64,000 nucleotides of DNA, from assembly GCA_963816145.1 (NCBI GenBank), contig CAWFJP010000014.1, forward strand, positions 416,001 through 480,000, given 5' to 3'. The DNA comes from an uncultured delta proteobacterium (GTDB lineage: Bacteria; Desulfobacterota; Binatia; UBA9968). Every line of letters starts with the position of its first letter. Position 1 is the stretch's first letter. The translations under genes were made by a program, and so were the position numbers. The notes beneath the pieces are model-generated. The model did no database searches, was not told the DNA's origin, and saw only the letters and a program-made list of their open reading frames with translations. Shown one piece after another: positions 10,220 through 32,149 of this stretch.

Positions 10220-10393
10220 ATGAAACGACTCACTCTATTATTTTTCGTAGCGTTGTTGCCCTTCACGGGCTACTCGTCCGCTCAGGAGTCAATCGAGGGA
10301 AAGGGCCAATCAATAAAACGCAAGATCGAAGAAGTGATTTCCGGCTATCTGACCGAACTCAACGGTAAATATAAGTTCGGCAGCCCTGCCTAG
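10220..10393 (+). pseudogene. Truncated exported protein (signal peptide plus ~30 aa)
   Basis: MKRLTLLFFVALLPFTGYSSAQ signal peptide with AGGA RBS; interrupted at G|TTCGGC (10375). Confidence 0.55.
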
Positions 10394-10429
10394 GGTTTGT
10401 TGCAGGTGGGATAGAAAGGAGGGATTTCC

Positions 10430-11405
10430 GTGAACTTCAAGCAAGCCACGTGCGCTGTGATACTCGCTCTTGGAAGCGTCCTTGGCGTTGCCCTCTCCGA
10501 GGCGCAGCAGCCGGGAAAGATGACGCGTGTGGGGTTTCTCGGCACTGGCCCTGCCCCCACGCCCGCCACGCCCTATGGCCCGTTGCGGGAATTCCGGCAG
10601 GGCCTTGACGAACTCGGCTATGTCGACGGCCGGGACGTCGTCATCGAAACGCGCTGGGCAGACGGGCGGATCGACCAGCTCCCCGCCTTGGCTGCCGAAC
10701 TGGTGGGGCTCAAGGTGGACATCATCGTCGGCGTCGGTGCAGTGGTGGCGCGGGCGGCCAAGAGTGCGACGACGACCATTCCCATCGTGATGGCGGTGGT
10801 GATCGACCCCGTTAAATTTAGTCGCGGAGCGGCCCGGTGGCAACCTGACGGGGCTCACCACCTTTGACCCGCAGGAGGCCAGGAAGAAGCTCGAACTCCT
10901 GAAGGAGGTGGTGCCTGGGCTGGCGCGTGTGGCGCTCCTCGGGGATCAAGCGGTGCGGGACGTGAGGGGGCATGCAGAGCAGGCACGTGCATTGGGTCTG
11001 CAGCCGCAGAGTCTCACGATTGCTGGGGCTAGCCCGGATCTGGAGGCAGTCTTCCAGGCCATTAGGAGAGAGCACGCCGACGCGCTCCTGGTCCTGGACC
11101 TGCCCGCGACGGCAACCCATCGCAAACGGATTGCCGAGCTGGCGGCGCAGCAGCGGTTGCCCACCTTGTTTTGGGGCGGCTCGTCGGACGCAGGGGGGCT
11201 GCTCGGCTATGGCACCAGGGTCACCGAGGCGGCGCGGCGCCTGGCGGCCTATGTGGACCGGATTGTCAAAGGGGCGCAGCCCGCCGACCTGCCTTTCGAG
11301 GTCGTCGTGCGCCCCGAGCTCATCGTCAACCTCAAGACGGCGCAGGAGATTGGCGTCACGATCCCGCCAGAGGTGCTCAAGCGGGCAGACCGGGTCATAC
11401 AATGA
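10430..11405 (+). pseudogene. ABC substrate-binding protein (ABC_sub_bind/PF04392-like), frameshifted near 10815
   Basis: LAAELVGLKVDIIV, TTTIPIVM...DPV in one frame; RPGGNLTG...KGAQPADLP...NLKTA..IGVTIP..ADRVI in another. Confidence 0.85.
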
Positions 11406-11445
11406 GGGGCTCAGCTACCAGCTCGACAATAGGCGCGACCGAGCT

Positions 11446-11532
11446 GCCGAACAACCGCCTGCAGCCGACGCCTTCAGCGTCCGCTGTGCGTCGCTGCGGC
11501 TTCCGGGCAGCGGCTGAGGCGCAGCGTTGGCC
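11446..11532 (+). other. attC recombination site (87 bp)
   Basis: R'' GCCGAAC, L'' CCTGCAGCCG, L' CGGCTGAGG (one extra-helical base), R' GTTGGCC. Confidence 0.88.
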
Positions 11533-23760: not shown

Positions 23761-24123
23761 ATGGCACGCATCGGACATATCGCATTACTGACCAAGGACA
23801 CTGAGAAACTCGCGGGCTTTTATAAGACTTCGTTCGGTCTCAACGAGGTTGCGCGCAGCGGCGAAGTGGGCGAGAACGGCCAGGCGATTTATCTTTCCGA
23901 CGGGCATATCAATCTAGCGATTCTGCCGGCGCGCAACCGCAAAGAGGGGATCTTTCACTTCGGCATGCAGGTGGAGGACGTCAAGGGCGCGGTCAGCACC
24001 GCCAAGGCCAACGGCGCCACCGGCGGCACGGACAAGCTGCCAAGAGACGGCCGGTTTGCCGAGACTTTCGTCCTCGATCCAGTGGGGACGCGGGTGGATT
24101 TATCGCCGGGGTGGAAAGTGTGA
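23761..24123 (+). CDS. VOC/glyoxalase family protein
   Basis: IGHIAL, LSDGHINLA, HFGMQV, DPVG.RVDLS; AAAGGAG RBS. Confidence 0.88.
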   Translation: MARIGHIALLTKDTEKLAGFYKTSFGLNEVARSGEVGENGQAIYLSDGHINLAILPARNRKEGIFHFGMQVEDVKGAVSTAKANGATGGTDKLPRDGRFAETFVLDPVGTRVDLSPGWKV

Positions 24124-24170
24124 CGTAGCGCTGCGCTGGGTATCCGGCGTCCGGTTTCAAGAGTTCATTG

Positions 24171-24288
24171 CTCATAAACCCCGCCTCTTGAGGCGGGCAT
24201 AACTAAATGGGGTTTCCAAGGGGGCAAGCATCCCCTTTGGTCAAGGGCGGGGTTAAATTCCCGCCCGCGAAGTAGTTTCGTTTAATGA
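24171..24288. repeat. Possible MITE-like element with three internal hairpins
   Basis: Short imperfect terminal IR (TCATAAAC / GTTTAATGA); hairpins CCCGCCTC-TT-GAGGCGGG, CCAAGGGGG..CCCCTTTGG, GGGCGGG..CCCGCCC. Confidence 0.45.
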
Positions 24289-24326
24289 CTGACCCGGTGT
24301 TTACGCGTTGTCATTAGCTCATCGAG

Positions 24327-25346
24327 ATGGTGGGGCAGGTAATGCGATCAATCAAATTCAGCAAGCTCTGTTTGTCGGTAGCGCTCGGAATATTGGTTTT
24401 ACGAGGACAAGTGTTTGCGCAGTCGACGCTGGAGCGCATCAACGCGATCTATGCGTCGCTCGCCGGCGATCACGCCGCGCTTTACGTGGCCCAAGAGATG
24501 GGCTTGTTCCGCAAGTACGGTCTCGATGTGAATCTCAGCTATACCGCCGGAGCGGCGCAGGTGATTCAGACTATGATGGCGGGAGAGAATCAGATCGCCA
24601 CGGCCGGCGGCAGCGGCGTGGTCGACGCCGATTTCGCCGGTGCCGATCTGGTCGCAGTGGCCGGCATGGTCAACATCCCGGCGTTTTATATCGTCGTCCA
24701 ACCGGAGATCAAATCGATTCAAGATTTGCGCGGCAAGCCGGTGGGCATCACCCGCTTCGGCTCGTCCACCGATTTCACCATGCGCTATATTTTGAAGAAG
24801 GCGGGCCTGGAACCGGACAAAGACGTGCCGCTTTTACAAATGGGCGGCCAGCCGGAGCTCGCCGCGGGCATCGAAGCGCGGCGGATATTTGCCGCGCCAA
24901 TGACCCCGCCGGCATTGCAAAAGACCCTCAAGGCCGGAGCGAGAATTCAGATCCCGCCCAAGACCATCGGACTAAGCTTTCCGCACGTCGGTATCGTCGT
25001 GCGCAAAACTTATCTCGCCGCGCACCGCCAGGTCGTGAAGAATTTCATCGCCGGTTATTCCGAGGGCGTCGCCATGCTGCAAAAAGACAAGGAAGGCAGC
25101 AAGAAAGCGATCGCCAAGTTTCTCCACACCGACGACCCCGAAGTTCTCGAAGCCAGTTGGCAGTTCGGCGTCGACGTGATCGAACGCACTCCCAATCTCG
25201 ATCCCGAAATGTTCAAGCTTGTCCTCGACGAGCGCGCCCAAACCCGGCCGGAAGCGAAAAAATATAAACCGGAGCAGTTTTTTGACGACAGTGTGGTGAA
25301 GGAGCTGGAGAAAGAAGGGTTTTTCAAGAAGATCTTTGCGCGGTGA
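24327..25346 (+). CDS. ABC transporter substrate-binding protein, NMT1/THI5-like
   Basis: GLFRKYGLDV, DLRGKPVGITRFGSSTD, PDKDV. Confidence 0.88.
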   Translation: MVGQVMRSIKFSKLCLSVALGILVLRGQVFAQSTLERINAIYASLAGDHAALYVAQEMGLFRKYGLDVNLSYTAGAAQVIQTMMAGENQIATAGGSGVVDADFAGADLVAVAGMVNIPAFYIVVQPEIKSIQDLRGKPVGITRFGSSTDFTMRYILKKAGLEPDKDVPLLQMGGQPELAAGIEARRIFAAPMTPPALQKTLKAGARIQIPPKTIGLSFPHVGIVVRKTYLAAHRQVVKNFIAGYSEGVAMLQKDKEGSKKAIAKFLHTDDPEVLEASWQFGVDVIERTPNLDPEMFKLVLDERAQTRPEAKKYKPEQFFDDSVVKELEKEGFFKKIFAR

Positions 25347-25496
25347 TGAGGTACAAGCGACCAAAGTAACCATCCGTAGAACTACGGTGAATGCGCAAAA
25401 GTGGAAATTGATTCGAAATCGACCCGATTAGTAGAGGAGACATGTTCATTGCGGCCTGGTATGATATCTGACTATTGAAAATCAGTGGGAGATGAA

Positions 25497-25730
25497 ATGT
25501 CACAAATGTTTGCCATTCAAATGGAAGTGCCAGACGATTTAGCACGGTTTCGGTTGCCTCCGGCCGTTGACACGCGTCTCCAACTACTACTGGACCGTCA
25601 AGATGGCGGTGAACGGTTGACTACGGCGGAACGGAAAGAAGCCCAAGGCTTGGTAAATCTAGCCGAGATGCTTTCGCTCCTGCGCTTGCGCGCTCGGCGC
25701 ATAAGCAGCGATCGTCGCGCAAAAAAATAA
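25497..25730 (+). CDS. Small helical protein translationally coupled to an HNH gene (putative antitoxin-like partner)
   Basis: 77 aa, RLQLLLDRQ..G.RLT..E..E; TAATG stop/start overlap with the HNH gene. Confidence 0.7.
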   Translation: MSQMFAIQMEVPDDLARFRLPPAVDTRLQLLLDRQDGGERLTTAERKEAQGLVNLAEMLSLLRLRARRISSDRRAKK

Positions 25731-26146
25731 TGAGCAACATCCCTGCTCGCTCCCGCCGCTTGGTTGTGATGCGGGCGGGAGGGCGATGCGAATATTGTGG
25801 TTTGTCGCAGGATAGCCAAGAAGCCACGTTTCACATCGACCACATCTTGCCTAAGGCCGCCGGTGGTTCATCCATCGCCCAAAATTTGGCTCTTGCATGT
25901 GTCTCCTGTTCATTGCGCAAGGAGGCCCGACGTTCAGCGATTGATCCCCATAGCGGTCGCAGAGTGGCCCTGTTTCATCCGCGTCGCCAGCGCTGGTACG
26001 ATCACTTTCGGTGGGCGGGGCCACGCGTTTTAGGTTTATCCGCGACGGGTCGGGCCACCGTTGCGGCACTTCGAATGAATCGTCCGTTAATATTGGCAAT
26101 ACGCGCGGAAGAGATACTACGGGGGCGGCATCCACCGACGAGTTAG
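25730..26146 (+). CDS. HNH endonuclease
   Basis: CEYC, HIDHILP..GG, NLALACVSC, LFHPR...W..HF. Confidence 0.9.
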   Translation: MSNIPARSRRLVVMRAGGRCEYCGLSQDSQEATFHIDHILPKAAGGSSIAQNLALACVSCSLRKEARRSAIDPHSGRRVALFHPRRQRWYDHFRWAGPRVLGLSATGRATVAALRMNRPLILAIRAEEILRGRHPPTS

Positions 26147-26169
26147 GTCCTGGCGCGGCGCGATTTTTG

Positions 26170-26301
26170 AAGCTCGTCCTCGAGGAGCGCGCCCAAACCC
26201 GGCCGGAAGCGAAAAAATATAAACCGGAGCAGTTTTTCGACGACAGTGTGGTAAAGGAGCTGGAGAAGGAAGGGTTTTTCAAGAAGATCTTTGCGCGGTG
26301 A
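26170..26301 (+). pseudogene. Orphan 132-bp duplicate of the 3' end of the SBP gene (25215-25346)
   Basis: 5 differences in 132 bp, all at third codon positions; ends at the same TGA. Confidence 0.92.
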
Positions 26302-26593
26302 GGCGACGCGCGAATGAGGAGGGAGTTGCCTGGGCATCGAAATGTTAACGCAATGATCATTTATACCCACGTCCTAAATCGCAACCAAAAATGAGTCCGG
26401 AGCTAGGCATATTTGTCGACTGTCCCCAATCGTTCGCAGTGTAATATTCATACACTGACCCGTGTATGACAGAGTGGTGTTTGGTCAAAAACGTTGATAG
26501 ATATTCGAAATCGTTGTCGAAGTCGCCCATCGTGAACGGCTTGAAAAATATTTATACGCTGGTCACTGTACTCACAAGTTAGGTGCCACTCTC

Positions 26594-27052
26594 ATGCTGC
26601 GAGTGTATTGCGACACAGGGGCGTATCGGTCCGAGCTCATGAAGTATGAGCAAGACGGACTGATCTCGGTTCATCAGTTCAAGTATGAAAATGCGAACCG
26701 TCATATAAGGCATGCAGCAGTTCCGTCCAATCCAACGTGGGACGAGATGAAGAACTACACTTGGGCCGACCTAAAGAAAATCGAAGAACTGAGAAACCTC
26801 ACCTGGGAGAGCGTAGAGCACACATCGGACAAGTTGAATGACATCATGGCGCTCGTTGGGACGAAGAACCTAATTGACGCGAAGCATTTGGATTCTGCAG
26901 TTGCTTCCGGGTGCAGCATCTTCCTCACTAGCGACAAGAAAGACATTTGGTCAAAGCGAGAAGCCCTCAAGTCGTTGACCGGGCTTCTAGTTCTTCACGT
27001 CACGACAGAGTGGGCAATCTTTGTTCAATTGGTCGAGAAAAATGACGCCTAA
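26594..27052 (+). CDS. Cassette 1: PIN-domain-like protein
   Basis: VYCDT at the N-terminus, DAKHLDSA, FLTSDK; acidic-residue pattern of PIN RNases. Confidence 0.65.
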   Translation: MLRVYCDTGAYRSELMKYEQDGLISVHQFKYENANRHIRHAAVPSNPTWDEMKNYTWADLKKIEELRNLTWESVEHTSDKLNDIMALVGTKNLIDAKHLDSAVASGCSIFLTSDKKDIWSKREALKSLTGLLVLHVTTEWAIFVQLVEKNDA

Positions 27053-27133
27053 CCCGCGGCTTAAGACTGATGTCAAGAACGCTCGCCTGAGAGGCTCGCT
27101 TATTCGCCACGGCTTAGCCGCATAGCGTTAAAC
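27047..27133 (+). other. attC site 1 (87 bp)
   Basis: GCCTAAC overlapping the stop codon; GCTTAAG / CTTAGC L boxes; GTTAAAC. Confidence 0.85.
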
Positions 27134-27147
27134 GGCACCTTGATCCG

Positions 27148-27969
27148 ATGACACAAGAACACGCGACCGAGAAGCAGCCTATCGCACCCGAATGGGCGAC
27201 TCAGCCGTTTCATCGTTTTCTCGACCAAGCCGAACGACTCGGGGATGTTGTTCAACTTAGCGTCCGTGGCATTTCTGTATTTCTCGCTATCCCCAGCGCT
27301 GTTGCAGTTCTCGCAAAAGTCGAAGAGAAGGACAAGACCACTGAGCATAAGCAGCGATTAGAACGCGTACGCAAGGATGCCGAGTTGGCACAGCGCGAGA
27401 TTGAGACCGGCTTTCCCATCGTCTTCGCAAACGCAACCGTTGCTTTATGGTCGTTTCTTGAATCAATGGTCCGCGCCACTCTTGTTGCGTGGCTGAAGAA
27501 TGACTCAAAAGCGTTCCAAAGTGACGCAATCGCCAAACTGCGCGTTAGATTGGGAGAGTACGAACGACTTATGCAAGACGAGCGATATCACTACGTCGCG
27601 GAACTACTCGAGGCCGAGCTCGCCGCTGGCTTAAGAAATGGCGTCGAACGATTCGAGGTAATGCTAAAACCGTTTGGATTGGACGGTTCTGTTCCAGAAA
27701 AGCTACGTCGCGACATGTTCGAATTCGGTCAAATTAGAAACGCGATTGTTCATAGGGGCGGACACGTTGATCGTCAGCTTTCGAACGCGTGCCCTTGGCT
27801 CGGATTTGCCGTTGGGGAGGAACTGCCAATAGGTCGAGATCATTTCAACCGATACGGGGAAGCTGCACACTACTATGTTATCTTGCTTATCTGCCGCATG
27901 GGCGAGTGTTTCGGGAAAGATATGACCGACGAGAAGCAATCGGTTATTGCAAAGTATGGACCCGGTTAA
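27148..27969 (+). CDS. Cassette 2: HEPN-like protein
   Basis: Helical protein with an R-x4-H motif (RNAIVH) and an upstream SFLE helix. Confidence 0.6.
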   Translation: MTQEHATEKQPIAPEWATQPFHRFLDQAERLGDVVQLSVRGISVFLAIPSAVAVLAKVEEKDKTTEHKQRLERVRKDAELAQREIETGFPIVFANATVALWSFLESMVRATLVAWLKNDSKAFQSDAIAKLRVRLGEYERLMQDERYHYVAELLEAELAAGLRNGVERFEVMLKPFGLDGSVPEKLRRDMFEFGQIRNAIVHRGGHVDRQLSNACPWLGFAVGEELPIGRDHFNRYGEAAHYYVILLICRMGECFGKDMTDEKQSVIAKYGPG

Positions 27970-28035
27970 CAACGCGTTCGAAAGAGGACGCCGTGCGAGA
28001 AAGCGGTAGCGCGCCGTTCAACGCGGGCGTTAGGC
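27964..28035 (+). other. attC site 2 (72 bp)
   Basis: GGTTAAC overlapping the stop codon; GCGTTCGAA / TTCAACGC; GTTAGGC. Confidence 0.87.
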
Positions 28036-28080
28036 AGGCTTGCCGGGTGCGGCCGAGAATGGAACGGGTATAAGACAGAG

Positions 28081-28818
28081 ATGACCGATTACTCAATAAA
28101 AAAGCATCTTCTCACTGAAAAAGAGTCCTCACGGCTTGAGCAACTGGGCGTCGAACTAGCTCCGAGTTCGTTGAAGTTAGAACGAGCGCTTTCACGTCGC
28201 GAGATGTTGGAGGTGTGGGGTATCATTTGGGCCCTCCGGGAACGAACCGCAGATCCAGAGAACGGCATTCAATTTGCCGTCGGGGATTGGTTGGTTGCTG
28301 CCGAATCGAGGTTTGGTAATTTTTGTGACCTTGTCCGAGAGGACGGCCTTCCACGCCCTAGAGTGATGATTTGCTACAAACACCAGGATTCGGAACGAGA
28401 CCAATGGGTTCAACGACTCTGTACTGATTTGCGGTCGAAGTTCGGAGTCGATGCAAAGCTCGACGATTTCGAAGTTGACTACGGTCAATCGTTCAGCGAC
28501 TACATGACATCGGAAATTGATCGCGAATGTGATGCGTTGTTATTCGTTATTACGTCGGCATCAGTTGCAGCCGTGGACGAGAAAAAAGCTGGCGGAGTTC
28601 ATTTTGAAATGCAATTAGCGAATGCGAGGCGAATTCGCGATTTGAGCTTCCGCATAATAGGAGTCTACCGCGAAGGTACTGAGATGACATCGTACCTACA
28701 TGACCTTCGCTACATAGATTTCAGAGATGATGGTTTGTACGGGACCCAGATTCGAGAATTGGCCCTCTCTCTGTGGGGCCAACGGAACAGGCCGCTTCTG
28801 CGGGATCAACTCGCATGA
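28081..28818 (+). CDS. Cassette 3: TIR/SEFIR-domain protein with an unknown N-terminal domain
   Basis: RVMICYKH..WV..L..DL...GVDA.LD, GGVHFE (candidate catalytic Glu), YIDFR. Confidence 0.8.
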   Translation: MTDYSIKKHLLTEKESSRLEQLGVELAPSSLKLERALSRREMLEVWGIIWALRERTADPENGIQFAVGDWLVAAESRFGNFCDLVREDGLPRPRVMICYKHQDSERDQWVQRLCTDLRSKFGVDAKLDDFEVDYGQSFSDYMTSEIDRECDALLFVITSASVAAVDEKKAGGVHFEMQLANARRIRDLSFRIIGVYREGTEMTSYLHDLRYIDFRDDGLYGTQIRELALSLWGQRNRPLLRDQLA

Positions 28819-28840
28819 GATCGATTGAGCGCAACCGGTT

Positions 28841-28904
28841 GCCTAACAACCGGTTTGAGTCCAGCGTTCCTAAACGTAGCGCGACTTAACCGTAAGCGTT
28901 AAGC
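28841..28904 (+). other. attC site 3 (64 bp)
   Basis: GCCTAAC; CGGTTTGAGTC / GACTTAACCG; GTTAAGC. Confidence 0.87.
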
Positions 28905-28926
28905 GGACAGTAGAGGAAATGCATTC

Positions 28927-29469
28927 ATGGCAAAAAGGCGGAAGGCGCGGTTTAGCGTAAGGCCCCGCGATAAGAACGTCTGGGCCAACTCAACGTGGCG
29001 AATATGGCGCGGTGAACTCCGCAGGCGTCCTGGCCCACCCGGCCAGAGCCTATTCAAGGTCGTCGCCGAGAAACTGCCTTACGAATCGATCCGGACGGTT
29101 GAGAAAGTCATGAAGGAGCGTCGCCTCAGCCGAACTGGTGTGTACGTGGCCCACGACTCCATGGGTACCGCACGCTATATAGGCAGAGGGAGAATCTTCA
29201 GTCGGCTAAAGGCACACCATCGGAGGTATCCGCTTGTTTTTCTCTACTATTCGTTCTACGTCGTTCCCAACAAGAGCCATGAACGTGAGGTTGAGACCCT
29301 CCTTATTCGAGCGGCGGGTTCGCTCCTAGAATTTAACCAAAAGAAAAAGCGCGTCACCATATCCGCGGGAAGTATCCGCGACTACGAAGCAGGGACCGTC
29401 TATTTTCAGAGGCACCGTCGTCGTGAGTCGTCGAAAAGAAAGAAAATTTGTGAGAACAGCGCCTCCTAA
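28927..29469 (+). CDS. Cassette 4: GIY-YIG-like nuclease
   Basis: GVY-x9-YIG, RL..H, E.LLI, terminal N. Confidence 0.75.
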   Translation: MAKRRKARFSVRPRDKNVWANSTWRIWRGELRRRPGPPGQSLFKVVAEKLPYESIRTVEKVMKERRLSRTGVYVAHDSMGTARYIGRGRIFSRLKAHHRRYPLVFLYYSFYVVPNKSHEREVETLLIRAAGSLLEFNQKKKRVTISAGSIRDYEAGTVYFQRHRRRESSKRKKICENSAS

Positions 29470-29515
29470 TGCAGACAGGGAAGAAAAGGGGATAAGTCCG
29501 ATTATTGACAGTGGT

Positions 29516-29575
29516 GCCTAACCATTGGGTTGAGAAGGCCGCGGCGGACCGCGCCTCGCACCCTAAACGTAAGGC
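29516..29575 (+). other. attC site 4 (60 bp), degenerate R' box
   Basis: GCCTAAC; GGGTTGAG / CGCACCC; GTAAGGC in place of GTTAGGC. Confidence 0.7.
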
Positions 29576-29810
29576 GTTTACTAGCCCACCCTAAAATGGG
29601 TCAGCCGATCGGGCCAGGTCTAGAATTTGAGCACGAGTGACTTGGATGGTGACTTACAGCTCTACGAAAATTCCTGCGCCAATGACAGCGCATGAATCCC
29701 ATTTGAATATCTCTGCGACGTGGCTGTAAGACCAGTTCATGCGATCGCGTTTATTAAAGCGCGACCGCATGCTCTGGCTTCACACTCGATCTCACGCGTG
29801 ACGTCGAATG

Positions 29811-30101
29811 CTACTTCACTTCGTAACGCTTGACGGTGGCGCGTCCGCCTTGCAAACCGCGTGAATGTTTCTGAATCTCGGTGTGGGCTTCGCCTTTTCG
29901 GTATTTGTCGATGCTCGCCTGACTGTCCCACTCAGAATAGGAGATGAACTCGCCGGGCGCATCGGCGCATTCCAATAGCTTTTCGGACAGACATCCCGGT
30001 TGCTTGATCATGAGAGGGGCGCAGTGGTTTTTCCACAGACTGATCGCTTGGGAAACCTGATCTGGCTTTACGGTAACGAAAATCATTCTGACAAGTGACA
30101 T
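29811..30101 (-). CDS. Antibiotic biosynthesis monooxygenase (ABM) family protein
   Basis: KQPGCLS, SYSEWDS...Y....H; GAGGAGG RBS. Confidence 0.85.
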   Translation of the reverse strand: MSLVRMIFVTVKPDQVSQAISLWKNHCAPLMIKQPGCLSEKLLECADAPGEFISYSEWDSQASIDKYRKGEAHTEIQKHSRGLQGGRATVKRYEVK

Positions 30102-30442
30102 AACGACCTCCTCGTTAATGAATCAAAGCCAAGAACTTTAACTTTAGAAGATTGTGCCGCGAACCGCTTGGCCAGTTTCTGACTGAGCACAACCCTCGTT
30201 TACCCCTCCTTTCGAAGCTAGACGTTGATTTACCGTCTATCACAAGAATGGGGAAAAACACATTCATTTCAACTGCAACTTGACCGGGCGAATCACGCGT
30301 CATTATCCTGCTGGACTCGACTCCTCGGAGGCGGCCCGCGGCGGAATCCGGCCTTGAAGCGACTGGCTTTTCGCCGGAGCGAGTGACCTAGCAGACAATG
30401 ATCCGCAACCGTGGTAAATCGATCCGAGGAGGAACACAGGAG

Positions 30443-31450
30443 ATGAAGAAATCGCAGTTGCCGGTGTGGATATTTTTAATCGGGTGGGTATGCTCTTCCC
30501 CCTCGGTCTCAATGGCCGCGGAGTGGAAGGACAAAGCCGAGGCGGAAGGGAAATTGGTTTTCTACACCACCGCCAACACGGCGGACACCAAAGCGCTTAC
30601 CGATAGTTTCAAGAAGATTTATCCCAAGATCGAGGTGCAGTTTGAGCGCACCACCGATTCCCAGATGATGGAGAAAATCCTTATCGAGTCTCGGGCGGGA
30701 AAGCCGCTTTGGGACGTGGTGTCGACGACAGGATTTTACGGTTATTTGCTCAAGAAACGCGGGCTTTTGGCCGCCTACGATTCACCGGAACGGAAATTTT
30801 TCCGCGAGGGTTTCAAAGATCCCCAGGGATTTTGGACTTCCAACTATACAACCTACGGCATTTTTGGTTTCAACACTAAACTGGTCTCGAAGGCGAACAT
30901 TCCGCGCTCCCATGATGATCTGCTCAAGCCGGTATGGAAAGGACAAGTCGGCATCGAAAGCCGAGCCTATGAATGGTTCACCGCGACGATCAGCGGCATG
31001 GGAAAAGAAAAAGGGCTGACCTTCATGCGCGCGCTGGCGGCGCAGCAGCCCAACCTGCGCGGCGGTCGAACGCTATTGGCTCAACTGGTTGCCGCCGGGG
31101 AGTTCAACGGCACGCTGACTTCCTACATGCACAACTTCGACTCACTCAAGGCGGGCGGTGCGCCGGTCGATTGGCTGCCGCTGGCGCCGTCGTTCGCCAA
31201 CCTCCATCCCGTGGGACTATCCGCAAAGTCGCCCCACCCCAATGCCGGCAAGCTGTTTATCGATTTCATGCTATCGCGGCGCGGTCAGGAGGTGGTGCGC
31301 GCGCTCAAGCGCATTCCCGATCGCATCGATACTCCGCCCGACCCGCCGACGCTGTTGCAGGGAGTAACGCCGGCCTTTACGGCTCCCGAGGTCTATGACG
31401 ACTTCGATCGCTACATTAAGCTCTATCAGGAAATCTTCGGCGTCAAGTAA
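30443..31450 (+). CDS. Extracellular solute-binding protein (Fe3+/thiamine-type)
   Basis: AEAEGKLVFYT, FKKIYPKI, SPHPNAGKLFIDFMLS. Confidence 0.88.
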   Translation: MKKSQLPVWIFLIGWVCSSPSVSMAAEWKDKAEAEGKLVFYTTANTADTKALTDSFKKIYPKIEVQFERTTDSQMMEKILIESRAGKPLWDVVSTTGFYGYLLKKRGLLAAYDSPERKFFREGFKDPQGFWTSNYTTYGIFGFNTKLVSKANIPRSHDDLLKPVWKGQVGIESRAYEWFTATISGMGKEKGLTFMRALAAQQPNLRGGRTLLAQLVAAGEFNGTLTSYMHNFDSLKAGGAPVDWLPLAPSFANLHPVGLSAKSPHPNAGKLFIDFMLSRRGQEVVRALKRIPDRIDTPPDPPTLLQGVTPAFTAPEVYDDFDRYIKLYQEIFGVK

Positions 31451-31562
31451 ATGCTGGCGACGGCCGGACAACCGGCTTCACACGGTAAAATGTAAGCGCT
31501 AAGATTTCTACGAGAGCGATTATCGGTGTTCCGCAAGAGTCGTAGCGATCAAAGGAGGGGTT

Positions 31563-31928
31563 ATGTCGATCAAGCTGAATCACACGATTGTGCCGGCAAA
31601 GGATAAAGAGGCCGCGGCCAAACTGTTCGCGCAGATTTTTGGCCTCAACTACGATGGGCCGATGGGCCATTTTGCCCCGGTGCGGGTGAACGACGAGCTG
31701 ACGATGGACTTCGATAACGCCGACTCCTTCGAGCCGCATCATTATGCTTTCCACGTCAGCGACAATGAATTCGATGCGATCTTTCAGCGCATCCAGGAGG
31801 CCGGCATTGACTGGGGCAGCGGGCCTCGAAGTTCGCGGGACCGGCAACTGAATTCCCGAAAGGACGGGCGCGGCGTTTACTTTCACGTTCTCGACGGTCA
31901 CCTGCTGGAATTGCTGACGCGCCCGTGA
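31563..31928 (+). CDS. VOC/bleomycin-resistance family protein
   Basis: LNHTIV, HYAFHV, GRGVYF...DGHLLEL. Confidence 0.88.
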   Translation: MSIKLNHTIVPAKDKEAAAKLFAQIFGLNYDGPMGHFAPVRVNDELTMDFDNADSFEPHHYAFHVSDNEFDAIFQRIQEAGIDWGSGPRSSRDRQLNSRKDGRGVYFHVLDGHLLELLTRP

Positions 31929-32149
31929 ACTCGCGTTTCCTGGCGAAGCCTTGCGCCGACGTAATCGTCCGATTTGGGTCCATCGCTCGATTACGTCTTA
32001 GCGGTTGGAGCACGAGCAGCGCTGCCAAGGCATAGGTTGTGATTGCGATTGTGACCCTGGGCCATTCAAGCCGAGGCGATAATAATCAACGTTCTGGTTA
32101 CATTCATGTGCGTTTCGCAGCCTGGCTTTTGCTGCTGGAGGAGAATGCA

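Follow-up and report, generated by a model that had tools for sequence, protein, structure and literature searches.

A decayed chromosomal integron with four single-gene, effector-like cassettes in an uncultured Binatia bacterium

Positions 26305 to 29575 of a 64,000-nucleotide stretch from an uncultured delta proteobacterium (Desulfobacterota; Binatia; UBA9968; GenBank contig CAWFJP010000014.1; the whole stretch is called the window) hold four small genes in a row, each followed by a palindrome, and raise the question of what sort of element collected them and whether their products serve against phages. A first-pass annotation of this DNA proposed an integrase-less integron array in which all four cassettes look like anti-phage effectors. 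Our results show that the segment is a decayed chromosomal integron with real cassettes, its integrase gene (intI) deleted except for a 3' stub, and of this we are highly confident. Toward the whole explanation, that of a decayed integron carrying stand-alone effector cassettes of the abortive-infection type, we lean with little better than even confidence. The features, with the scores of the covariance model R1 described below, are as follows (window coordinates).

26305-26430, + strand: intI stub, the last 42 codons with two in-frame stops, including box II with the catalytic-tyrosine motif (…IIYTHVLNR…)
26392-26584, + strand: attI-like site, about 190 bp, with conserved blocks at 26436-26468 and 26553-26583 and the crossover G↓TT at 26578-26580
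26579-27127, + strand: cassette 1, 549 bp; gene 26594-27052, 152-aa PIN-like protein
27047-27133, + strand: attC1, 87 bp; R'' GCCTAAC, R' GTTAAAC; R1 34.9 bits, E 3.4e-7
27128-28029, + strand: cassette 2, 902 bp; gene 27148-27969, 273-aa HEPN protein
27964-28035, + strand: attC2, 72 bp; R'' GGTTAAC, R' GTTAGGC; R1 19.5 bits, E 0.0046 (window)
28030-28898, + strand: cassette 3, 869 bp; gene 28081-28818, 245-aa TIR/SEFIR protein
28841-28904, + strand: attC3, 64 bp; R'' GCCTAAC, R' GTTAAGC; R1 32.1 bits, E 1.9e-6
28899-29569, + strand: cassette 4, 671 bp; gene 28927-29469, 180-aa basic protein with a GIY-YIG-like motif set
29516-29575, + strand: attC4, 60 bp; R'' GCCTAAC, R' GTAAGGC; R1 34.6 bits, E 4e-7

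Array layout and attC sites

An imperfect palindrome stands 3' of each of the four co-oriented open reading frames (ORFs), opening with an RYYYAAC-type box and closing with a GTTRRRY-type box. These palindromes were evaluated with R1, a covariance model built from 10 attC candidates, five from contig C15 of the same genome and the others from the relatives G012 (contig C72, n=2), G014 (n=1) and G017 (n=2); the training set contained no site from the window and none resembling attC1 or attC4. A consensus-plus-hairpin scan, run on the C15 arrays and on the arrays of the three relatives, served only to select these training sites. As an attC detector in its own right the scan was rejected as too unspecific, firing at 491 genome loci, while a stricter setting missed attC1 and attC2. 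In the R1 alignment, 86.1% of cells kept the classical pairs (R''/R' and L''/L', one base being bulged), and this figure dropped to 19.7-38.7% when the 3' partners were slid by 1-3 columns; the first MAFFT alignments of the long attC sites had the R''/R' pairs alone aligned and were unfit for a model. When the entire 64 kb was searched on both strands with no filters, R1 listed 39 matches at E<=10, five of them with E<0.01, and four of these five were the attC sites of the array, all on the + strand, the fifth being the lone site at 11446-11532 described below. The sixth-best match in the window, which is the best unrelated one, reached 13.8 bits (E 0.16). An independent model has therefore recovered the exact coordinates and lengths (87, 72, 64 and 60 bp) of the four sites proposed in the first-pass annotation. 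With four + strand sites within 2.5 kb, the array qualifies as a cluster of attC sites lacking integron-integrases (CALIN), for which at least two co-oriented, close attC sites found by a structure-aware model are needed.

The order of parts is also that of integron cassettes, i.e., a gene followed by an attC whose R'' box is complementary to the start of its own cassette. Summed over the four cassettes, R'' matched the cassette's own start at 25 of 28 positions and the physically adjacent R' at 22 of 28, and the better fit to the own starts agrees with the prediction of the G↓TT crossover model. The start of cassette 3 (GTTAGGC) is the exact complement of its R'' (GCCTAAC; 7/7), as had been claimed, while cassettes 1, 2 and 4 each match at 6 of 7 positions and thus not in full. 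Cassette leaders measure 15-51 nt and the attC sites begin -6 to 46 nt past the stop codons, attC1 overlapping the stop codon of gene 1. The GC content is 0.47-0.54 in the array and 0.58-0.63 in its flanks. In attC4 the R' box reads GTAAGGC, so that the conserved crossover triplet GTT is mutated to GTA, which should disable crossover there; its homologues at G012:C72 (L030:8574-8633) and G017:C34 (L025:5836-5895) terminate in GTTAGG(C/T). Copies related to attC4 also occur in the same genome (C30:522807-522860 and C5:179657-179704), and attC1 shares 93%, 94% and 85% identity with sites of the C15 arrays (182288-182370, 191539-191610 and 189285-189367, respectively).

Integrase loss, attI and cassette mobility

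The stub upstream of cassette 1 aligned with residues 316-357 of the G012 IntI (55% identity, E 1e-6, tblastn), and both C15 IntI proteins matched it as well. The attI-like site that follows is 71-75% identical to G014:C4:378754-378942 and G012:C72:7269-7428, the two genomes with a homologue in a search of 30 others of the genus; the homology stops at …CACAAGTTA(G) in all three genomes, and the cassettes beyond differ. Since the homologous segment in G012 lies directly 3' of an intact intI in the same orientation (358-aa ORF, TIGR02249 467.6 bits vs. a cut-off of 265), positions 26392-26584 are the attI of this integron type, an assignment made by homology rather than by recombination assay. 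Within it, 26437-26457 forms a perfect 7-7-7 palindrome with no exact copy elsewhere in the 7.8-Mb genome, and the block 26553-26583 is conserved and ends at the crossover; both are possibly integrase-binding sites. We also considered the palindrome as an SOS (LexA) box and rejected this, as it occurs at 3 genome places at <=2 mismatches with no regulon pattern. No significant similarity was found between the attI sites of the C15 integrons and that of the array.

Since the array keeps attI and a 42-codon stub, it is a decayed integron rather than a group of attC sites of unknown origin. It is not a complete integron, for which an adjacent intact intI is required, and the description "integrase-less" was right in that respect but incomplete, since attI and a degraded stub are retained. 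The stub begins 3 nt past the stop codon (26301) of a duplicated 135-nt 3' end of an ABC substrate-binding protein (SBP) gene that lies upstream. In the relative G004, the SBP gene is followed by 30 bp and then by the flank with the ABM-domain gene, and the DNA corresponding to window 26306 to ~29645 is absent; the G014 copy is likewise without intI. Insertion at a plain genomic GTT (attG-type) was ruled out, given the attI and stub at the left end and an empty site in G004 that lacks 26306-~29645.

An intact intI elsewhere in the genome, a prospect raised by the first-pass annotation, does exist: contig C15 carries two (TIGR02249 468.1 and 465.9 bits vs. the cut-off of 265), each with a cassette array 3' of it on the same strand (region C15:171000-204000; L019, L020).

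C15:184021-185103, minus strand: intact intI gene
C15:202184-203278, minus strand: intact intI gene

The array belongs to a type of integron whose intI and cassettes share one orientation, a type also represented by the C15 integrons and by that of G012. In class 1 integrons, by contrast, intI is oriented opposite to the cassettes. The C15 IntI proteins could act on the array in trans. A partial integrase-like match also lies between the two intI genes, on the opposite strand (C15:191761-192156).

Public metagenomes provided modest support for cassette mobility, in the form of single short contigs from 4 of 20 listed runs that were compared with the region. Contigs that match attC1 diverge at 27129/27130 into three different continuations (runs X1, X4 and X5), and others begin matching at 27044-27049 or 29515-29518. 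The X4 copy of the HEPN cassette, differing at a few positions per 100 bases, matches to 28031, beyond which the contig carries unlike DNA. These break points are the predicted cassette edges (G↓TT), and the cassettes thus occur in other arrangements. The junctions between attI and cassette 1, between cassettes 3 and 4 and between cassettes 2 and 3 are bridged as in the window by single contigs of X1, X3 and X5.

R1 was also run genome-wide (7.8 Mb; 150 of 5314 first-look candidates scored) and gave at least 22 matches at E<=1e-3, 10 of them in the C15 integron region and 3 in the array. Its 19 matches (E<=0.05) in 73.9 kb of loci from relatives all fell inside the four array-holding loci, and the three array-free loci (29 kb) had none. 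Matches outside known integrons were located at C14:207807-209747, C1:351386-351945, C5:179657-179716, C30:522802-522861, C3:728660-728743, C6:12372-12426 and C14:593013-593067, two of them coming in pairs, which suggests that the same genome holds more integrase-less clusters and lone cassettes. The best R1 score in the window (37.6 bits, E 6e-8) belongs to a lone attC-like site at 11446-11532, 40 nt 3' of an ABC-type binding-protein gene that is apparently split in two frames (10430-10867 and 10908-11405). Just upstream of the split gene, at 10375, stands GTTCGGC, a 7-mer that complements the R'' of the lone site exactly and is found 13 times in the window, and 10375-11532 looks, suggestively at most, like a single cassette alone in the chromosome.

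The left flank has features of its own. The 135-nt 3' end of the SBP gene forms a direct repeat, 96% identical (25212-25346 and 26167-26301), bracketing a 955-bp module in which an 81-aa ORF (25485-25730) overlaps an HNH endonuclease gene (25730-26146; Pfam HNH E 2.2e-10; PADLOC PtuB-like E 2.4e-9). This module is also present in G007 and is absent from G004. In G012:C72 (L030) and G014:C4 (L022), where genes were named from translations, the integron or attI lies beside a set of lexA, imuA-like and imuB-like genes and a gene pair including a gp37/DUF5131-like protein; in G014 the cassettes sit between lexA and the imuA/imuB-like genes.

The four cassette products

The cassette 1 protein had 66 homologues, none with a Pfam family. 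In all 31 aligned relatives, Y5, C6, D7, E32, D95, H98, D100, D114, K115 and D117 were invariant, including the conserved acidic residues expected of a PIN domain (D7, E32, D95, D100, D114 and D117); C6, H98 and K115 lie outside what we take to be the PIN signature. None of the 31 family members matched a Pfam PIN family at E<=0.1, and a sequence-profile search of the PDB with this family returned nothing meaningful. The AlphaFold 2 (AF2) model of the protein had a predicted local distance difference test score (pLDDT) of 91.5, and a Foldseek search of the PDB gave a VapC as the best match, a weak one (E 0.019; none at E<=0.001), the closest structural neighbours being VapC21, VapC2, VapC15 and VapC11. 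An ESM Atlas neighbour cluster (score 0.91) carries PF01850 in 18% of its members. In our reading the product is a PIN-like nuclease into which ~55 residues (about 33-90) are inserted, and it differs from VapC-type PIN toxins in this insert, in having no antitoxin gene and in matching no Pfam PIN family. Homologue loci from other phyla (n=22) had no conserved neighbour gene, and the family was not found in viral contigs. Judging from translations only, a homologue in a Parachlamydiaceae metagenome-assembled genome (L047, 2000-3650) directly follows an apparent CRISPR-type repeat array, and others adjoin toxin-antitoxin-like pairs or integrase/primase-like genes.

The cassette 2 protein consists of an N-terminal helical region (residues 15-118) and a HEPN domain with the motif R197-x4-H202 (RNAIVH). 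Its family comprises 1638 representative clusters at E<=1e-3, and E84, E105, G165, R197, H202 and D208 were invariant in 42 of 42 relatives, the R-x4-6-H motif among them. Although the protein itself matched no Pfam family, 8 of the 42 relatives matched PF18735 (RiboL-PSP HEPN) and 2 matched PF18737, and the HEPN assignment of the protein is supported at the level of fold or family. Its AF2 model (pLDDT 95.9) had no Foldseek match in the PDB at E<=0.001, its closest structural neighbours being the HEPN toxins 8xdj, 5yep and 7ae2; a PDB sequence-profile search with the family gave nothing meaningful. A homodimer prediction scored 0.41 against a mark of 0.42. The protein shares the invariant R-x4-H and the four-helix HEPN core with RiboL-PSP-type and HEPN/MNT-type RNases, but differs from them in its long N-terminal helical region and in having no MNT partner.

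The cassette 3 protein matched Pfam TIR_2 over residues 95-222 (E 6.2e-12, 46.5 bits vs. a cut-off of 28) and Pfam SEFIR at 24 bits, the cut-off being 23. The match to the PADLOC bSEFIR model (E 8.9e-20) spans residues 88-236 of the protein and positions 37-185 of the 412-position profile. The N-terminal ~90 aa belong to no recognised family, and relatives carry the same TIR/SEFIR domain with other N- or C-terminal partners. E176 (…FEMQ…) was invariant in 18 of 18 relatives and, from its position, may be the catalytic glutamate of NAD-cleaving TIR domains. Compared with the single-gene defence system bSEFIR (PADLOC PDLC03957), the protein shows the SEFIR/TIR domain match and an invariant glutamate where TIR NADases are expected to have one, but it is only 245 aa long, the model having 412 positions, and its domain order differs, with the N-terminal region preceding TIR. 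A 74%-identical TIR/SEFIR gene stands alone between oxygenase-like genes in G004 (C4:125936-126631; L021).

For the cassette 4 protein, 624 homologues were found. In 32 of 32 relatives, G71-V-Y73, R83-Y84-I-G86, R93, E119/E121/E123 and N137 were invariant, so that the motifs occur in the order known for GIY-YIG nucleases, and their spacing, with 11 residues between GVY and YIG and with R, E and N following, fits the canonical motif. ESM Atlas neighbours carry PF01541 (score 0.95, in 23% of members; score 0.93, in 88%). The product is a probable GIY-YIG nuclease, by motif only: it resembles the GIY-YIG superfamily (PF01541) in motif order, spacing and these neighbours, but not in Pfam or profile comparisons, which are taken up below. 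A PDB profile search with the family gave 0 matches. The family was found at 2 loci in viral contigs. The HEPN gene and the GIY-YIG-like gene were each found in 1 of 80 other genomes of the bacterium's family, the patchy pattern of accessory conflict genes.

Most of the motifs named in the first-pass annotation (PIN, HEPN with RxxxxH, TIR/SEFIR and GIY-YIG) were therefore borne out, TIR by Pfam and the other three by invariant residues. All four products look like anti-phage effectors at the level of fold and motif (cassette 4 by motif only), but the TIR/SEFIR protein is the sole one to match a known defence model, and this in part.

Function, rival explanations and significance

Each cassette has space for one gene only, leaving no room for a partner gene. 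At the level of fold and motif, the products appear to be unrelated small proteins, each with one effector module and a short extra region, the modules being a predicted PIN-like RNase, a HEPN RNase, a TIR/SEFIR domain of the NADase type and a probable GIY-YIG nuclease. In the mechanism that we propose, the effectors would be kept inactive by the extra region or by low expression until phage infection, whereupon they would cut RNA or DNA or deplete NAD+, in the manner of abortive infection. The cassettes can probably still be excised and re-inserted by IntI in trans, the last attC excepted, since attC1 is near-identical to attC sites of the intact C15 integrons. The array would thus be a small defence store, as experimentally shown for other integron cassettes. 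Our analysis leaves the chances that these are stand-alone conflict effectors with a defence role about evenly balanced. A bolder proposal, to which we give appreciably less than an even chance, is that at least two of the PIN-like, HEPN and GIY-YIG-like proteins are undescribed one-protein anti-phage systems and that the array is a defence-only remnant, frozen by integrase loss but still capable of feeding the two active integrons of the genome.

Several results weigh against a decayed integron stocked with defence effectors. As regards its recombination sites, the R1 training sites were chosen by a scan and not by experiment, and attC2 is the weakest of the four sites (19.5 bits) and is absent from the genome-wide list at E<=1e-3. 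Hairpin free energies of the attC1-3 bottom strands (z = -1.58, -0.03 and -0.25 vs. shuffles) gave no separation, and these z-scores were dropped as an attC criterion. Outside the array, homologues of the cassette genes do not visibly sit in cassettes. R1, a genus-trained model, returned no attC when run with default filters on 22 loci with a PIN-like homologue, nor did it find one adjoining the homologues of the HEPN and GIY-YIG-like genes in G099, G097 and two viral contigs. A frameshift splits the G004 TIR gene copy (189-aa and 101-aa frames), and R1 detected no attC there. As regards the proteins, a search of PADLOC-DB 2.0 gave bSEFIR for cassette 3, and this match is not full-length (positions 37-185 of 412 covered, in a protein of 245 aa), no match for protein 1, and no significant match for protein 2 (best SspE, E 0.0065, 12.7 bits) or protein 4 (best PDC-S14, E 0.01, 12.9 bits). 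No Pfam family matched any of the 32 relatives of the cassette 4 protein, and an hhalign comparison with 27 GIY-YIG domains from the same bacterial order set the motifs in register with a probability of 3%. As regards expression, a sigma-70 consensus scan of 26100-29800, which does not cover other promoter types, found 0 promoters where 2.2 were expected by chance, and no RNA runs containing the array stretch were found. Since neither a cassette promoter nor such a run was found, the array may be silent cargo.

The alternative that survives best is that the cassettes are real but are orphan toxins, selfish stabilising modules or silent toxic cargo with no role against phages; the PIN would then be VapC-like and the HEPN that of a HEPN/MNT pair, with the antitoxin lost or never present. 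We consider this unlikely. The nearest structural neighbours, VapCs for the one and 8xdj, 5yep and 7ae2 for the other, are indeed toxins of toxin-antitoxin systems, such systems are common cassettes in related arrays (in G014, for example, HigB/HigA-like pairs lie between attC sites), and a promoter was not detected. However, one gene per cassette, with so short a leader and so short a distance to attC, leaves no antitoxin gene, the 22 PIN-like loci share no conserved neighbour, and catalytic residues that are invariant across large families argue for selection on activity, not decay. The boundary between a toxin and an abortive-infection effector is in any case thin.

Less probable still, and in our view improbable, is that the array of real cassettes is a fossil, its contents being unexpressed decaying remnants or ordinary nucleic-acid enzymes outside conflict. 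The two stops in the intI stub, the mutated crossover triplet of attC4, the frameshift in the G004 TIR gene copy and the failure to find a promoter-like site would fit this explanation, but all four reading frames are intact with every family-invariant residue present, several public metagenomes contain segments of the array in near-identical form, and the promoter scan was limited to the sigma-70 consensus. That there is no integron at all, and that the four attC sites are chance palindromes, other intergenic repeats or terminators, is effectively refuted: folding energies like those of shuffles, a crude scan that fires at 491 genome places and the lack of any Rfam match (0 at E<=10 in 24000-32000, uninformative since to our knowledge Rfam has no attC family) are outweighed by the R1 scores and controls, the homology of attC1 and attC4 to sites in arrays beside intact intI genes, the attI and intI stub directly upstream, and public contigs that break at the predicted G↓TT points.

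This type of element is already known, and so is the concept of a defence store, from work published in 2024-2026. Cassettes of sedentary and mobile integrons have been shown often to encode compact phage-defence systems (10.1101/2024.07.02.601686; 10.1101/2024.07.02.601719), and cassettes with TIR, PIN-type or HEPN domains have been shown to confer phage resistance (10.1101/2024.07.02.601719; 10.1101/2024.07.02.601686; 10.64898/2026.03.17.712381), one HEPN cassette being of the AbiU2 type (10.64898/2026.03.17.712381). Compared by the domain descriptions in these sources, the published defence cassettes of sedentary integrons and the phage-resistance cassettes of mobile integrons (BRiCs) are, like ours, small and mostly single-cassette systems, with TIR (Brc236), PIN-type (Brc24) and HEPN (Esos, Taranis) domains; unlike them, the present array comes from a host of a soil or sediment lineage, not from Vibrio or clinical plasmids. 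The suggestion that the single-gene systems may be undescribed is accordingly fair for three protein families, but the concept of defence in integron cassettes is published. Like other CALINs, the array has two or more attC sites in one orientation, apparently promoterless single-gene cassettes, no functional intI nearby and related attC sites in intact integrons elsewhere in the genome; it differs from them in its recognisable attI and 42-codon intI stub, which show directly that it arose by loss of the integrase. What is new is this readable stub and attI at a CALIN, the same-orientation integron type in this lineage, and, in a cassette context, three protein families that have neither a Pfam nor a PADLOC model, although the supplementary lists of the published systems may already include relatives of them.

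The general picture of what integrons do is unchanged by these findings. The three compact families, with about 66, >600 and >1,600 relatives or representative clusters and conserved catalytic residues, are cheap and well-defined candidates for the current screens of integron cassettes for phage defence, and the locus, from an environmental lineage remote from both Vibrio and clinical plasmids, shows how an integrase-less attC cluster can arise.

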